DNA of 64,000 nucleotides from Caulobacteraceae bacterium. GTDB taxonomy: Bacteria; Pseudomonadota; Alphaproteobacteria; Caulobacterales; Caulobacteraceae. A program made the translations under genes and the position numbers. Each line of letters starts with the position of its first letter. The first letter of the stretch is position 1. The stretch covers positions 13,451 through 77,450 of the forward strand of contig DATNJB010000085.1 of assembly GCA_035604135.1 (NCBI GenBank), written 5' to 3'. This document shows positions 46,999 to 53,135 of this stretch, one piece after another. The notes beneath the pieces are model-generated. The model saw only the letters and a program-made list of their open reading frames with translations. It did no database searches and had not been told where the DNA came from.

Positions 46999-47541
46999 AT
47001 GGCCCGGCTGATCCTGATCCGTCACTGCGAATCCAGCGGGCAGGCGCCGGACGCGCCGTTGACCGATGCGGGAAGCCGCGCCGCGCAGGTCCTCGCCGAT
47101 CGGCTGACCTTGCTCGCCCCGGACGCCGTCTATTCGAGCCCCTACCGGCGCGCGCGAAGCACTGTTGCGCCGTTCGCCGAGCGGGCGGGGCTCCCCATCG
47201 TGGAGGACTCTCGCCTGCATGAGCGGATCTTGGCCGCCACGCCGCTGGACGACTGGTTGGAGCACATCCGCCGCTCCTACGCGGACGTCGACCATCGCGC
47301 CGGCGCGGGCGGGGAGACGCTACGCGAGGTCGAGGCTCGCGGCAGCGCGGCCCTGGCCGTCATCGCCGCCGCCGGGCACGCCCTGCCGCTCGCCGTCAGC
47401 CACGGCAACCTTATCTCCGCCATCCTGCGCGCCGCTGATCCATCCTTTGGGTTCGAAGGCTGGCGTGCGCTGAGGAACCCCGATCTGTTCGAGATCACCA
47501 TGCGCGATGGGCGGCCGGTCTCGTTCGTGCGGATTGAGTAG
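46999..47541 (+). CDS. Histidine phosphatase family protein
   Basis: LIRHCES, SSPYRRA..T, RLHE, VSHG motifs. Confidence 0.85.
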   Translation: MARLILIRHCESSGQAPDAPLTDAGSRAAQVLADRLTLLAPDAVYSSPYRRARSTVAPFAERAGLPIVEDSRLHERILAATPLDDWLEHIRRSYADVDHRAGAGGETLREVEARGSAALAVIAAAGHALPLAVSHGNLISAILRAADPSFGFEGWRALRNPDLFEITMRDGRPVSFVRIE

Positions 47542-47547
47542 GCGCAG

Positions 47548-48468
47548 TCAGAAGGCGCGGCTCAGCACCACCTTGAGCAGCTCACGCGCGATGAGCTGGT
47601 CGCCGTTGTTGTGGATGTAGAGCGGGAACTCGACGTCGCCGTACAGTTTCCAAGCTCCCCTCGTCACCTGAACGCCGGGCGAGAGTAGAATTCGGTTGTA
47701 GCCGCTATTGCCGGTGTTGGCGTTGACGCCGCTGTCCCGGTTGCGCGTCGAGGCGACCACCTGCAACAGCGGCGCGATGACGGTCTTGCCGTCGTCGACA
47801 GACAAGCCGTTGTAGGTGACGCCCGCCGCGCCATCGAGCTCCTGGCCAGGCCGATACCCGCCCTGCGCCGCGACCGGAACATCCCAGAGCACATGGGCGA
47901 AGTAGCCCCAGTCGCCAGCTCTCCCGATCGTTCCGGTATGATAGCCGCCGATGAGCAAATTCGTGCTGCCCGTGCCGATCGACGTGTCGCGGTCGAAGTT
48001 GGGGTAGCGCCAATCGCCGGTCGGCAGCTTCACGCCGAAGATCAAGCCGGTGGACATGTCCTTCGACAGGCCGGTGTAGACCCCCATCAGCCGGATATCG
48101 CCGAGCGCGGCGTGGTTGAAGGTGTCGACCGCGGTTCCCGCGTCGTTCTCAGTGCGGAACGTGCGGTCCCAGACCGGAACCTGCACGATCACGCCCCAGT
48201 TGGCGTTGAACGTGTAGGTCACGCCTGCGGTGAAGAAGTTGGTCCTGATCTCCTTGTCGGAGTTGGCGGAAGCCGGCGCTGCCTTGGTGCTCGCCCAGTT
48301 CTGGTTCTGGTCCATGTAGTTGTATTCGAAGAAGACCTCGCCGCCGCCCATCGGCGGCAGCATCTGGTCGCCGCCGACGTCGAAGACGTCGCAGCCGCAG
48401 GCGCAGGCGAGCGCGCTCGCCGGCAGCAAAAGGGCCGCCGCAAAGGCGGTTGTGAGTAAGACTTTCAT
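47548..48468 (-). CDS. Outer-membrane beta-barrel protein with N-terminal CACGC motif
   Basis: Signal peptide ending ALA, then CACGC; alternating beta-strand pattern, LGDIRL, GVKLPTGD, C-terminal Phe. Confidence 0.7.
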   Translation of the reverse strand: MKVLLTTAFAAALLLPASALACACGCDVFDVGGDQMLPPMGGGEVFFEYNYMDQNQNWASTKAAPASANSDKEIRTNFFTAGVTYTFNANWGVIVQVPVWDRTFRTENDAGTAVDTFNHAALGDIRLMGVYTGLSKDMSTGLIFGVKLPTGDWRYPNFDRDTSIGTGSTNLLIGGYHTGTIGRAGDWGYFAHVLWDVPVAAQGGYRPGQELDGAAGVTYNGLSVDDGKTVIAPLLQVVASTRNRDSGVNANTGNSGYNRILLSPGVQVTRGAWKLYGDVEFPLYIHNNGDQLIARELLKVVLSRAF

Positions 48469-48540
48469 ACTTCGTCCGTTGATTCGAGGTCGCGCGCATG
48501 GGCGCGGGCGGGCGCGAGCGCGCGGGCGCTCAGCGAAGGG

Positions 48541-48936
48541 TCAGATGAGGTGGGTCGGCGGCGCCTGGGACGGCGGCGGCGGCGCGGCGAGGCCGTGGCC
48601 GGGGGTGACGGCGGAGAACCTCGCCGCCGGCGCGGCGAAGCTTTCGAAGCGGACGGGCGCGACGCCGAGCGGTGCTGAGGCAACCGGCGTCGCGCCATGG
48701 CCGGCGAACGGGCACATCGGCGCGGGCTTGCCTTTCGGCGCCGGGGCCGGCGCGCCGCGCGGATCGACTTGCGCCAGAAACGGCCCGTGGCCAGTGCAGA
48801 TGACGATCGCTGGCCCGGCCGCCGCCGACGCGACCATGAAGCCGGGGGGAACCGCGAGCTGGAAGATCAGGGCGATGAGGGCGAGCGCGCTCAGCGCAGC
48901 TCTTCCTTCGCCATGCCTGGAGCCAGCCCGCGCCAT
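48541..48936 (-). CDS. DUF2946 family protein (candidate regulatory uORF)
   Basis: N-terminal TM, VICTGHG, MCPFAGH, C-terminal PPPPSQAPP; GAGGAGG RBS. Confidence 0.75.
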   Translation of the reverse strand: MARAGSRHGEGRAALSALALIALIFQLAVPPGFMVASAAAGPAIVICTGHGPFLAQVDPRGAPAPAPKGKPAPMCPFAGHGATPVASAPLGVAPVRFESFAAPAARFSAVTPGHGLAAPPPPSQAPPTHLI

Positions 48937-48998
48937 TTGCGCCTCCTCTACCAGGAGTCGACGAACGGAGCGCCCGATTTGTTCCCGGTGACGCGCGT

Positions 48999-50552
48999 TC
49001 AGGCCGCCTTGGCTTCGCTCTCGGCGATGCGCTGGATGGCGACGTAGTCGGTCTTGCCCGTGCCCAGCACGGGCACCTCGGGCGCGCGGACGATGCGACT
49101 CGGAACCAGCAGCTCGGGGGCGCCGATCTCGCGCGCGTGGGCGATCAGCGTCGTCATCTGCGCATCGAGGCGGTCAGTGACCAGCACGAGCTTTTCGCCC
49201 TTGCGCGCGTCCGGCACGGCGATGACGGCGTGGCGCGCGCCGGGCCAGGTGCCGGACGCCAGGTTCTCGGCCGCGGTCAGCGACACCATTTCGCCGGCGA
49301 TCTTGGCGAAGCGTTTGACCCGTCCATGGATGCGGATCCAACCGTCCTCGTCGATGGTGACGATGTCGCCGGTGTCGTGCCAGCCGTCCTTCGGCGGCAT
49401 CAGCGCGCCGTGCTCGTCGAGGTAGCCCGACATGACGTTCGGTCCGCGAACGAACAGCTGGCCGCCCTCGGCGATGCCCTCGACGGGGTCGATCCGCGTT
49501 TCCATGCCCGGCACGAGGTCGCCGACGGTGCCCCGCCGGTTGTCCTCAGGCCGGTTGACGGCGATTACCGGCGCAGCCTCGGTCGCGCCATAGCCCTCCA
49601 CCAGCGGCACACCCCCGAAGCGGCTCGCGATCAGGTCGTGGGTCTCCTCGCGCACCCGCTCCGCGCCGCAGACGACGAACTTGAGCCCTGACAAGTCGCC
49701 GGGCTCGGCCTGCCGCGCGTACTGGTTCACGAAGGTGTCGGTGGCGAGAAGGATCGAAGCCTTGGTGTCGCGCACCAGCGGCGGGATCTGCTTCACATGC
49801 AGCGGCGAAGGGTATTGGAACGCCCTCATGCCGGTCAGGATCGGCAGCAGCACGCCGCCGGTCAGGCCGAAGCAGTGGAAGATAGGCAGCGGGTTGAACA
49901 TCACCCAGTCCGGGTCGAGTGCGATGTGAGCGGCGATCTGCTCGACGTTGGCGACCAGGTTGCCCTGGCTCAGCACCACCCCCTTCGGCGCGCCGAAACT
50001 ACCGGAGGTGAAAAGGATGACGCCCGGGTCTGACGGGCTCGCCGGGGCGCGGAAGGTGCGCGGCATGGCGCCCGCCAAAGCGGCGAACGCGCGGTCGACC
50101 AGGCCGACCGTTGCGCGCACGTCCTCGAGATAGGTGATCGCGTGGTCGGCGGAGAGCGCGTCGATCACGTCGTCGAGCTTGGCCTGGTCGACGAAGCGAT
50201 GGGCGGTGAGGATGCGCTTGACCCCGGCGGCGGCGCAGGCCGCCTTCAGATTGCGGATGCCGGCCGTGAAGTTGAGCATCACCGGGATGCGCCCGAAGGC
50301 ATAGAGAGCAAAGAGCGTGACCACGCCGGCCGAGCTCGACGGCAGCATGACGCCCACCCGCTCGCCCTTGTCGGTCATGGCCGCGATCTTGCGCCCAAGC
50401 GCGAAAGCGGCGCGGATCAGGTCGGTGTAGGTGAGGGGATTGCGCTCCTGGTCCTCAAGGATCGGCTTCTTGCGGCCATGGGCGTCGCGCGCATCGACAA
50501 GCGCGTCGAACACCGCCCGGTTTCCGGCCTTGGGGTCGTAGGCGCGCGGCAT
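48999..50552 (-). CDS. Stand-alone Aas-type acyl-ACP synthetase (AMP-binding) domain
   Basis: FTSGSFGAPKGV, LPIFHCFGLT, EGYGATE, WHDTGD, RFAKIAGEMVSL, GTGKTDY. Confidence 0.88.
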   Translation of the reverse strand: MPRAYDPKAGNRAVFDALVDARDAHGRKKPILEDQERNPLTYTDLIRAAFALGRKIAAMTDKGERVGVMLPSSSAGVVTLFALYAFGRIPVMLNFTAGIRNLKAACAAAGVKRILTAHRFVDQAKLDDVIDALSADHAITYLEDVRATVGLVDRAFAALAGAMPRTFRAPASPSDPGVILFTSGSFGAPKGVVLSQGNLVANVEQIAAHIALDPDWVMFNPLPIFHCFGLTGGVLLPILTGMRAFQYPSPLHVKQIPPLVRDTKASILLATDTFVNQYARQAEPGDLSGLKFVVCGAERVREETHDLIASRFGGVPLVEGYGATEAAPVIAVNRPEDNRRGTVGDLVPGMETRIDPVEGIAEGGQLFVRGPNVMSGYLDEHGALMPPKDGWHDTGDIVTIDEDGWIRIHGRVKRFAKIAGEMVSLTAAENLASGTWPGARHAVIAVPDARKGEKLVLVTDRLDAQMTTLIAHAREIGAPELLVPSRIVRAPEVPVLGTGKTDYVAIQRIAESEAKAA

Positions 50553-51206: not shown

Positions 51207-51243
51207 ACCAAACAGTTGACCATTCGGCCGGCGCTAGGCTATG

Positions 51244-51261
51244 CTCAACTCAATGGTTGAG
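51244..51261. promoter_or_regulatory. ArsR autoregulatory operator overlapping the start codon
   Basis: Perfect ctcaac-N6-gttgag palindrome spanning ATG 51253. Confidence 0.7.
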
Positions 51262-51615
51262 TTATCGCCGCCCGCCCTCGACTCCGTGTTTCACGCCCTG
51301 GCCGATCCCACGCGGCGGGCCATGCTCCGCAGTTTGGCGGCAGGGGAGCGCAATATCGGTGAGCTTGCGGCGCCGCATGCGATGTCGCTCGCAGCGGCGT
51401 CGAAGCACGTCAAGGTGCTGGAGCGCGCTGGACTGGTCCGCCGGCGGATCATGGGACGGAGCCACCTCTGCCGCATCGAGACGCGACCACTGGCAGCCGC
51501 CGACGACTGGCTGCGATTCTACCAACGGCTCTGGAGCCGGAGCTTCGACGCCCTCGACGACATCCTCTGCGAAGAACCGGCGCCAAGCGCCCGATCCGAC
51601 GGAGAAAGCTCATGA
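51253..51615 (+). CDS. ArsR/SmtB family transcriptional regulator
   Basis: VFHALADPTRRAML, SLAAASKHVKVLERAGLV.R..GR. Confidence 0.92.
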   Translation: MVELSPPALDSVFHALADPTRRAMLRSLAAGERNIGELAAPHAMSLAAASKHVKVLERAGLVRRRIMGRSHLCRIETRPLAAADDWLRFYQRLWSRSFDALDDILCEEPAPSARSDGESS

Positions 51616-52049
51616 CGGACGTTGTGCTTGAGACCTTGCGCCTCACGCGTCGCTTCGACTCCCCGCCGGAGCGAGTGTTCGACGCCTGGCTCAATCCGGA
51701 GGTGGCCGCACGCTGGCTATTCACCACGCCCGGCAGCGAACGCCACACCACCGCGCTCGACGTCCGCGTCGGAGGCGCCTGGAAGATGACCGACCGTCGC
51801 GACGGCGTCGACTACACCGCGCTCGGCGAGTACCGCGTCATCGACCGGCCGCGGCGGCTCGTCTTCTCGTTCGGCATGCCCCAGTTCTCGCCCGAGTTCG
51901 CCGAAGTCACAGTGGAGTTCGCGCCGGACGGGGACGGCTGCCTGATGACGCTGTCGCAAGACCGCGTGCATACGGACAGCATCGGGCCTCTTACGGCGGG
52001 CTGGGCGGCAATGTTCGACGCGCTCGCGGGCCTTGTTGCGGCGGCGTAA
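51612..52049 (+). CDS. SRPBCC/AHSA1 domain protein
   Basis: TRRFDSPPERVFDAW, DVRVGG, G.Y..IDRP.RLVFS, GWAAMFD. Confidence 0.88.
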   Translation: MTDVVLETLRLTRRFDSPPERVFDAWLNPEVAARWLFTTPGSERHTTALDVRVGGAWKMTDRRDGVDYTALGEYRVIDRPRRLVFSFGMPQFSPEFAEVTVEFAPDGDGCLMTLSQDRVHTDSIGPLTAGWAAMFDALAGLVAAA

Positions 52050-52086: not shown

Positions 52087-52114
52087 GCTTGCCCCCGTCG
52101 CGCCGGGGGCAAGC
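52087..52114. terminator. Perfect 11-bp hairpin between the SRPBCC and TIR genes
   Basis: gcttgcccccg-tcgcgc-cgggggcaagc, ending just before ATG 52116. Confidence 0.5.
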
Positions 52115-52115
52115 G

Positions 52116-53135
52116 ATGCAGCACGTTCTGGTCTCATACAAACGCGAGGACGAGCCCAGGGTCGCGCGCCTGATCCGGGCGCTGCAACACCACGGCCTGA
52201 CCATCTGGTGGGATCAGGGGTTGCCGGGCGGCGAGGAGTGGCGCGCCAACATCGAAAAAGCCCTGACCGAGGCGGGGTGCGTGGTGGTGGTCTGGAGCCA
52301 TGGCTCGGTCGGGCCGGAGGGTGAGTTCGTCCGCGACGAGGCGGCGCGCGCCAAGGGCAGGGGGATACTGGTCCCGGTTCGGCTCGACAAAGTGATGCCG
52401 CCGCTGGGATTCGGCGAGATCCAGGCGGTCGATCTGTCCGGGTGGCGCGGCAACCCGAACGACCCCTCCGTGCGCGACCTGGTCGAGGCTGTGAAGGCCA
52501 AGCTGGAAGGCCGCGCCGCCCCGCCGGCCAAGGCGCCGGGCCGCCGCCTGCTTCGCCGCGCCGCGATCGGAACCAGTTCGACGGCGCTCCTGATGAGCGC
52601 GCTGGCCTTCGCCGGCAACATGTTCGCCACCCAGGATCGGTTCTGCACCATTCCGATCGCCCAGCCGGGGTTGTCGGACGCGTGCGGGGCCGTCCACGTC
52701 GGCGGGCGGCCGAGTTATGCCGAGCGCATCGCGTGGGCCAAGCGGCGGCCGGGCAGCTGCGGCGACCTGCAGGCGATCATCAAGGACTTCCCCGACGGGG
52801 CCTATCGTTCCAAGGCCGCCGATCTCTTGCAAGCGGCCGCGGTGAGCAGCGCCTCGCCGTTCGCGTCCGACCCGCGCACGACACGCGGCTACGTCCGCCA
52901 GTCGATGACCGGGTTCGCCAGCGCGGCCGCCGCTCAGGCCGACGCCAAGACCCGCGCCGTAGAGGACGCCAAGCAGACCACCTGCGCGCCGGTCGACGCC
53001 AACGAGCGCTTGGACGGCGTCGAGATCACGAGCACGACCTTCGACTGCCGGCCCTCGCCGCTGGGCGGAACCGTCTGCGCGGCCGACTATGTGGCCACCT
53101 GCCAGCTCGAGGCGCGCCAGGCGGTCTGCGGCTGA
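52116..53135 (+). CDS. TIR-domain protein with a TM segment and Cys-rich C-terminal domain
   Basis: VSYKRED, WWDQ.LPGG..W, VVVVWS..SV, FVRDEA, LVPVRLD; hydrophobic stretch then 8 Cys. Confidence 0.85.
   Translation: MQHVLVSYKREDEPRVARLIRALQHHGLTIWWDQGLPGGEEWRANIEKALTEAGCVVVVWSHGSVGPEGEFVRDEAARAKGRGILVPVRLDKVMPPLGFGEIQAVDLSGWRGNPNDPSVRDLVEAVKAKLEGRAAPPAKAPGRRLLRRAAIGTSSTALLMSALAFAGNMFATQDRFCTIPIAQPGLSDACGAVHVGGRPSYAERIAWAKRRPGSCGDLQAIIKDFPDGAYRSKAADLLQAAAVSSASPFASDPRTTRGYVRQSMTGFASAAAAQADAKTRAVEDAKQTTCAPVDANERLDGVEITSTTFDCRPSPLGGTVCAADYVATCQLEARQAVCG

Follow-up and report, generated by a model that had tools for sequence, protein, structure and literature searches.

A CruR-like leader peptide upstream of a CACGC-tipped outer-membrane barrel: a candidate copper-sensing and uptake module in Caulobacteraceae

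Small exported proteins that are encoded just ahead of the gene they regulate, with an xAPP core near the stop codon, include ApdA, ApdP, ApcA and SecM (RAGP in the last). Two leaders of the DUF2946 superfamily are linked to copper. CruR (Bp2923) of Bordetella pertussis is exported, about 130-145 amino acids long and encoded by the first gene of its operon; it has a semi-conserved upstream Cys and a CXXC motif placed exactly 45 residues before RAPP, which itself lies 3-4 residues from the stop. The CXXC-45-RAPP spacing is kept within 1-2 residues across DUF2946, adding 5 residues to it strongly reduces copper control, the signal region is dispensable for regulation and the cruR transcript has a mapped Rho-utilisation (rut) region with more C than G (Roy et al., PMC9426467). 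Arrest at RAPP has been demonstrated in vitro (PMC12992588). A long structured spacer of 162 nucleotides (nt) separates cruR from the gene of a 22-stranded outer-membrane protein, CrtA/BfrG, which imports copper for heme-copper oxidases (PMC12914433). CutF, from the cutFOG operon of Rhodobacter capsulatus, carries a C-terminal PPP at which the pause is EF-P-sensitive, and its effect is confined in cis to the gene that follows: copper induces stalling, and the ribosome-binding site (RBS) of a periplasmic multicopper oxidase, a detoxification enzyme, is unmasked from a stem-loop. Here we analyse a 64,000-nucleotide stretch of DNA (hereafter the window) from a Caulobacteraceae bacterium (contig DATNJB010000085.1; G+C 68.7 %; sampled from a peat metagenome) and describe within it a two-gene locus on the minus strand, at 47548-48936, in which a small DUF2946-like open reading frame (ORF) precedes an outer-membrane barrel.

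As judged from its own sequence and that of its relatives, the small ORF is a divergent leader of the CruR/CutF superfamily (DUF2946) and stands in the CruR register. Its pairing with the barrel recurs across genomes, and the barrel belongs to an uncharacterised family found among copper-handling genes. A known regulatory kind is here coupled to a new, undescribed class of target. The reading that we favour, at a probability of about 0.58, is that the pair forms a copper-acquisition module, in which a CruR-type nascent-peptide sensor, a copper-relieved pause and Rho-dependent read-through would govern a Cu(I) uptake channel.

The leader peptide and its register

The leader gene and the motifs of its product are as follows.

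48541-48936, minus strand: leader ORF, 131 amino acids, a divergent DUF2946/CruR-like exported peptide (268 homologues, many with PF11162)
48942-48948, minus strand: Shine-Dalgarno GAGGAGG of the leader ORF, 6 nt before the ATG at 48936 (direct sequence reading)
48850-48900, minus strand: hydrophobic export signal or signal anchor AALSALALIALIFQLAV, residues 13-29 (17 residues), with basic R3, R7 and R12 before it and an invariant PxGxM after it (sequence reading)
48784-48801, minus strand: ICTGHG, residues 46-51, first candidate metal-ligand pair Cys47/His50
48697-48714, minus strand: CPFAGH, residues 75-80, at the position of the CruR CXXC, with the second Cys replaced by Ala and a His at +5
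48568-48702, minus strand: 45-residue linker, residues 79-123, of constant length and mostly variable sequence, with the last eight residues (116-123) conserved
48556-48582, minus strand: PPPPSQAPP, residues 119-127, putative ribosome-pausing module, followed by the hydrophobic 4-residue tail THLI and TGA

An earlier note, made from the letters of the window alone, had described an exported small protein with a transmembrane segment, ICTGHG, CPFAGH and a PPPPSQAPP-THLI end, and had likened it to CruR. All of these features are present at 48541-48936, with residues 115-127 reading GLAAPPPPSQAPP before THLI and the TGA stop, and the kinship holds as well, for the distance from CPFA to QAPP is the same 45 residues that separate CXXC from RAPP in CruR. 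Many homologues of the leader have precomputed hits to Pfam DUF2946 (PF11162), and two relatives linked to barrels score 30.7 and 19.3 bits against this model. The canonical DUF2946 protein of Ralstonia solanacearum (36.9 bits), which is encoded upstream of a related barrel, has CLFC, 45 residues, RAPP and then LA. We assign the leader to the CruR/CutF superfamily because its relatives match PF11162, because it keeps the 45-residue spacing and because of the CLFC-45-RAPP arrangement in Ralstonia. The last two also fix the register, which places C75 at the first Cys of CXXC and A78 where the second would be. Across leader homologues the spacing from the Cys motif to xAPP is 45 residues, as in the window, in 97 of 114 cases and 46 in a further 14 of 114.

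We aligned the leader with 34 homologues sharing 39-79 % identity. Invariant residues include P30, G32, M34, C47, T48, G49, H50, G51, C75 and F77 in the first two thirds of the protein and L116, A117, A118, P120-P122 and P126-P127 in the tail; at least 90 % of the aligned leaders keep A78 and H80, and CTGH is found in nearly all of 120 homologues. Residues 81-112 are mostly free in sequence, while the distance from motif to motif is fixed. In the tail, every synonymous codon occurs at each of the Pro, Ala and Gly positions (57 distinct DNA versions), so that the peptide, rather than an RNA element, is what selection preserves.

The site of the RAPP arginine is variable within limits. It is Gln in 91 of 118 members of the subfamily (77 %), Arg in 13 and His in 12, and Leu, Ile and Thr also occur; the window has Gln124 (CAG at 48565-48567), and the R of the R-[AG]-P-P core is absent from it. 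The nearest relative of the window (L001, with a barrel 91 % identical) has a leader with RAPP. The sequence around this site is steadier: PPPPS stands upstream of xAPP in 100 of 118 homologues, four residues follow xAPP in 100, and the PPP core (P120-P122), which adjoins xAPP upstream, is invariant and usually PPPP. We also observed that the Gln replacing the RAPP arginine is encoded by the rare codon CAA in 31 of 42 unique DNA versions (loci L002-L153), compared with 130 of 654 Gln codons (20 %) in adjacent genes of these high-GC genomes (Fisher p = 7e-13, without correction for relatedness); the window itself does not share this codon.

The likeness to CruR extends to the whole locus. Both leaders are exported, of similar length and first in their operon, with an upstream Cys, a Cys motif 45 residues before xAPP and a stop 3-4 residues beyond it; both loci have a C-rich 3' region, a structured spacer and an outer-membrane protein downstream, a copper importer in the one case and a proposed importer in the other. 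They differ in that the window has CxxA with a His at +5 in place of CXXC and QAPP in place of RAPP, in that it adds the PPP core one residue upstream of xAPP, in its shorter spacer (72 nt) and in its target, a 12-stranded barrel without TonB features; nor does a PepSY_TM gene follow in the window. With CutF the leader shares the DUF2946 superfamily, a Sec signal, a Cys-based copper site (a candidate one in the window) and the C-terminal PPP, whereas CutF has CxxxC and two further Cys and its target, the multicopper oxidase, is of another kind. With ApdA, ApdP, ApcA and SecM it shares an xAPP core near the stop and the place of an exported small protein before the regulated gene, but the Arg of the RAPP/RGPP peptides is Gln in the window and His, Leu or more rarely Arg in its relatives.

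The barrel family and its copper-related neighbourhood

The second gene of the locus has these features.

47548-48468, minus strand: outer-membrane barrel gene, 306 amino acids, about 12 strands, C-terminal Phe (AlphaFold2 model, Foldseek, more than 1900 homologues)
48406-48468, minus strand: barrel signal peptide, 21 amino acids, with cleavage at ASALA/C (an AxA site; homologues have Ala at -3 and Ala or Gly at -1)
48391-48405, minus strand: CACGC, the N-terminus of the mature barrel and a candidate Cu(I)-binding plug tip (C22, A23, C24, G25 and C26 invariant)

The mature protein begins CACGCDVFDVGG, and CACGC follows directly after the AxA site in 119 of the best 120 barrel homologues; this tip and the 72 nt between the two genes are as the earlier note had given them. 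An alignment of 25 barrels has 58 invariant columns, among them C22-C26 and many acidic residues. Because CACGC is found in all but one of these 120 barrels and because the leader residues named above are invariant in 34 homologues, the features of both genes lie far beyond chance. Homologues of the barrel make up more than 1900 clusters at 90 % identity, almost all of them unnamed; at 50 % identity, 1486 cluster representatives match the barrel profile, 219 of them at E <= 1e-30. Two N-terminal types dominate, CACGC and C[AS]xCGC[ST]L, the second as in Ralstonia.

The AlphaFold2 model has a mean pLDDT of 79.6 and a pTM of 0.78 and predicts about 12 strands, the first at residues 42-60. Its best matches in the PDB by Foldseek are the COG4313 channel Pput2725 (4rl8; TM-score 0.72-0.73, E 2e-8) and FapF, which bears out a barrel fold. 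The COG4313/PF13557 channels (Pput2725, SphA, TcpY) and FapF are thus the nearest structural relatives (TM-score 0.72), from which the window barrel differs by lacking a Pfam or PDB sequence match, by its invariant N-terminal Cys cluster and by a family context of copper handling rather than of hydrophobic-compound catabolism or amyloid secretion. In Pput2725 the N-terminal segment before strand 1 occludes the lumen, and by analogy the CACGC segment may lie in or at the pore of the barrel; the model has pLDDT below 50 for residues 1-28.

The barrel gave no Pfam hit at E up to 1, no NCBIfam match and no PDB sequence match when the PDB was searched with the barrel profile. PF13557 is found in only 2 of 120 barrel homologues, and a distant Ralstonia relative reaches 33.8 bits, above the threshold. 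A hit of NCBIfam NOVBLXIJ to the barrel signal peptide (23 residues, E 0.016) was set aside as spurious. We also ruled out a lipoprotein reading of LA/C, the site being AxA/C with a variable -2 residue and no lipobox. In the literature on CruR and CutF (the neighbour table in the CutF supplement excepted), and on CxCxC, COG4313 or PF13557 with copper, we met with no earlier account of the CACGC barrel or of leaders with QAPP.

To look at the pairing from the barrel side, we took one genome per species, giving 80 loci, or 81 with the window. They come from Alpha- and Gammaproteobacteria, Armatimonadota, Acidobacteriota, Omnitrophota, Binatota, Planctomycetota and others. An upstream ORF ending in [RQH][AG]PP plus 2-5 residues is present in 44 of the 81, mostly with canonical R[AG]PP. 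The reverse survey started from 80 metagenome loci found through the CTGHG motif of the leader; among the 72 informative ones a Cys-tipped barrel lies downstream of the leader in 44, and most of the others have a TonB-dependent receptor, one a PCuAC chaperone. The pairing therefore recurs in both directions. Since the same leader subfamily precedes either the barrel or TonB-dependent receptors, the barrel shares the operon slot of the classical CruR target CrtA/BfrG. CrtA/BfrG, OprC and Bradyrhizobium japonicum pcuABCDE occupy that same position behind a CruR-like leader, are linked to PCuAC and, by inference, to copper supply for oxidases; CrtA/BfrG and OprC are energised 22-stranded transporters with plug domains, whereas the window barrel is small and has no TonB box.

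The neighbourhood points to copper. A PCuAC chaperone (PF04314, 105 bits) is adjacent in about nine barrel loci, an AhpC-TSA/redoxin protein (TlpA-like) with WCxPC lies directly downstream in about 30, and in one locus the upstream protein reads as a putative cupredoxin by its motif. AhpC_TSA genes have been noted in cruR operons without mention of a barrel (PMC9426467), which fits the absence of a Pfam model for the family. These neighbours, together with the TonB-dependent receptors, make copper and not nickel the likely metal: the earlier note had left the choice between Cu and Ni, of which the first is supported and the second is not. Histidine-only CutF-like clusters adjoin HupE/UreJ, and a nickel or cobalt role was ruled out for the window leader, which is Cys-based and has relatives next to copper-protein genes. 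The earlier view of the barrel as a real, uncharacterised family without TonB features and tied to metal handling is upheld.

Two cultured bacteria carry related units. On the R. solanacearum megaplasmid (CP052083.1, L081:4458-6516) a three-gene unit is annotated as DUF2946 protein, 'transporter' and redoxin; its barrel (PF13557, 27 % identical to that of the window) matures to CATCGCSLSTD and is of the sister type with a CxxCGC tip, and the unit is on megaplasmid records in all 129 matching Ralstonia records. In Phenylobacterium montanum (CP073078.1, L162:2500-2886) the order AMP-ligase, leader, barrel, convergent Lpd and PDH-E2 repeats the synteny of the window, and the leader tail is PPPPALGPPAAI.

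In loci labelled Armatimonadota (including Capsulimonadaceae), Thermoanaerobaculia and Omnitrophota, other small exported Cys-rich ORFs stand before the barrel, at L026:5398-5847, L037:5438-5863, L039 (end 5772), L053:5517-5882, L060:5587-5934, L067:5478-5873 and L080 (end 5917). Their sequences include CCCRPGHCHMAMC and CALACARAG..CCPMGHG, and tails read, for instance, EQPPRAV, YPPPRFA, DKVPLRPC and EYVPKI. It is conceivable that these ORFs are further classes of leader peptide that have not been described.

A contig from the source metagenome run has a joint that omits 370 bases within the barrel gene (window 48006-48377). The joint is supported by a 45-nt match with 5 mismatches and probably reflects cross-matching from a paralogous or related-strain barrel, not a real deletion.

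The spacer and the surrounding sequence

At the RNA level two features concern us.

48469-48540, minus strand: spacer of exactly 72 nt, with a GC-rich hairpin CGCGCGC...GCGCGCG and without a U-tract
48481-48610, minus strand: C-rich, G-poor mRNA stretch (C/G 2.05-2.32), candidate Rho-utilisation region, covering the 3' end of the leader and the spacer

Over the 64 kb, taken in windows of 78 nt, the 99th percentile of the C/G ratio is 1.83, a value that this stretch exceeds; the stretch resembles the rut region of cruR. In 38 leader-barrel loci the spacers are 45-189 nt long and generally without U-tracts. Compared with shuffled controls these homologous spacers fold with a mean z of -1.64, and 26 of 38 are below -1; the 161-nt junction of the window reaches a z of only -0.34. 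Searching for an RBS that a stalled ribosome would unmask gave an essentially negative result, with no such masking predicted, and an unmasking switch of the CutF type is therefore not supported, though still conceivable. Pairing between the stop-proximal and the pre-start sequence is slightly better within a locus (-11.4 kcal/mol) than across loci (-10.1 kcal/mol; permutation p 0.0014), a weak tendency in which the window does not stand out. In the spacers of L007, L009, L015, L023, L029, L033 and others, the stop codon and the bases after it (UGAUCG, UGAUGA, UGAGUCCAACUC) can pair just upstream of the barrel RBS, which would close the whole spacer into one domain.

Rfam over 47300-49300 returned nothing credible and no riboswitch, and a sigma-70 promoter scan found none. 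Terminator-like matches are no more frequent than in shuffled sequence and are sited inside the barrel coding region. One of them, at 48435-48449 (minus strand), consists of a short hairpin and, after it, a T-rich run (CCGCCTTTGCGGCGG CCCTTTTGCT), 20-45 nt into the coding region of the barrel signal peptide; it could be the termination or pause point of an attenuator, with the caution that the count of such hits is not above that in shuffled sequence.

On its upstream side the leader ORF is separated by 62 nt from the end of an AMP-binding ligase gene, and on the other side of the locus 6 nt lie between the end of the barrel ORF (47548) and the stop codon of a histidine-phosphatase gene that converges on it. 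Further away, at 52089-53135 (plus strand), a protein of 348 amino acids carries a TIR_2 domain (PF13676, 72.6 bits) at its N-terminus; its C-terminal half contains Cys and is uncharacterised, and the protein could serve in signalling or defence. Next to it, at 51241-52049 (plus strand), two adjacent and overlapping small ORFs of 124 and 145 amino acids resemble, by eye alone, an ArsR-type regulator followed by an SRPBCC/AHSA1-like protein.

Proposed mechanism, alternatives and meaning

We hypothesize that the module would work as follows. The leader would be translated efficiently and targeted for export, and the ribosome would pause at PPPPSQAPP, a few codons before the stop. In this position it would cover the C-rich end of the leader mRNA, so that Rho could not load and RNA polymerase would cross the spacer into the barrel gene. 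When copper is sufficient it would be bound by Cys47/His50 and Cys75/His80, ligands that would already be outside the ribosome because they lie at least 45 residues behind the pause site; a change in folding or pulling force would then release the pause. The released ribosome would terminate, the C-rich RNA would be exposed and transcription would end within or beyond the spacer, so that no barrel would be produced. The barrel itself would be a 12-stranded COG4313/FapF-like channel without TonB features, whose CACGC would bind Cu(I) at or inside the lumen. It would pass Cu(I) to PCuAC-type periplasmic chaperones, and in many genomes a co-encoded TlpA-like thioredoxin would keep the thiols reduced.

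Several observations weigh against this reading. The window leader itself scores only 16.2 bits against PF11162, below the cut-off of 23.7 (E 0.019, with an end-to-end alignment). It has no CXXC: the motif is CPFA, and at least 90 % of the subfamily have Ala in place of the second Cys. The earlier note had named the loss of CxxC together with the change of RAPP to QAPP; the loss is real, and its association with the Q variant is not, for CP[FY]A is common to all three clusters of leaders upstream of CACGC barrels, those with canonical RAPP included, which makes it a clade trait independent of that variant. In ApcA, ApdA and ApdP all 19 substitutions of the RAPP arginine abolish arrest, it is irreplaceable in SecM too, and the arginine of RAPP-type peptides inserts into a pocket of the 23S rRNA at the peptidyl-transferase centre (PMC12992588). 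Since it is irreplaceable in the tested peptides, QAPP should not act as a RAPP-type motif, which makes the earlier proposal of QAPP as a variant of that arrest unlikely, and any pause must rely on PPPP. From its conservation beside QAPP, the PPPP run is the more probable place for a pause. Pauses of this polyproline kind would be weaker, and EF-P normally relieves them. The leader of P. montanum has Leu at the site of the arginine. About a third of the barrel loci have no recognisable leader, neither PCuAC nor a thioredoxin adjoins the locus in the window, the C-richness at the 3' end of the leader is partly forced by Pro and Ala codons, and no RNA contigs for the locus came from three small metatranscriptome runs on a related sample within the same study.

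If the PPP core is the likely pause site, the module is mechanistically closer to the EF-P-sensitive PPP stall of CutF, with the architecture of CruR kept. One could go further and reverse the sign of the response: periplasmic copper would induce the PPPP stall during co-translational export, the stalled ribosome would melt the spacer and turn on translation of the barrel, and the barrel would serve detoxification, efflux or as a sink. The invariant PPP core, mostly PPPP, and the loss of Arg from most leaders do resemble the EF-P-dependent, copper-induced stall of CutF, and the export signal, the structured spacers and the slightly better pairing within loci are all in keeping with it. We nevertheless think this alternative unlikely. 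The leader subfamily precedes TonB-dependent receptors and PCuAC, hence genes of uptake and biogenesis, and not oxidases or resistance-nodulation-division (RND) pumps, and the 45-residue spacing of CruR is kept.

A further explanation, to which we attach rather little weight, is that the small protein is no regulator at all and acts as a stable partner of the barrel, for instance as a membrane-anchored periplasmic copper chaperone, with its Pro-rich C-terminus serving as a linker or as a tag for degradation or anchoring. In favour of this explanation are the strongly conserved export signal with PxGxM (though the signal region of CruR is dispensable), the invariant Cys/His motifs and fitness data on DUF2946 in Pseudomonas, which were taken to mean a part in copper uptake or homeostasis. 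A linker of constant length and mostly free sequence is, however, what a tunnel-spanning spacer and not a folded domain would look like. The distance of xAPP from the stop is fixed at 3-4 residues, the gene, invariably the first, is followed by a structured spacer of 60-140 nt, and the CruR and CutF proteins are undetectable in vivo.

Lastly, the Q variant might be a decayed arrest motif in a leader that no longer stalls, leaving the barrel constitutively attenuated or under other control such as a transcription factor, an idea that draws on the irreplaceable Arg and on the occurrence of Q, H, R, L, I and T at its site, but that we hold improbable given the strong purifying selection on GLAAPPPPS..PP, the spacing and the tail length at only 39-79 % identity, the far from free choice of residue at the Arg position (Q at 77 %) and the preference for CAA.

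Returning to the copper-acquisition module, its interest lies first in the barrel. The passage of copper through the outer membrane when the metal is limiting is as yet poorly understood. According to a 2026 study (PMC12914433), the only known copper-specific outer-membrane importers are TonB-dependent, and diffusion through porins is probably insufficient when copper is scarce. The CACGC barrel is a testable candidate for a route free of TonB, being widespread, placed in the operon slot of the receptors and adjoining PCuAC and TlpA-like genes. Its family is found in many Gram-negative phyla and abounds in peat and soil. More tentatively, and as a possibility that we would not yet bet on, CACGC barrels may be an unrecognised family of passive copper-specific uptake channels that serve as an alternative to TonB-dependent receptors, in which a tri-Cys plug captures Cu(I), needs a dedicated thioredoxin and feeds PCuAC for oxidase assembly, with the leaders of the Caulobacterales type forming an Arg-less polyproline arrest module. 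Cultured carriers are at hand in P. montanum and, for the CxxCGC sister type, in R. solanacearum. The leaders with Gln, His or Leu, which keep the CruR architecture and a mostly invariant PPPP, amount to a natural experiment on arrest strength and EF-P dependence. If the proposal is true, Arg-less polyproline leaders would show how RAPP-type sensors can be rebuilt.

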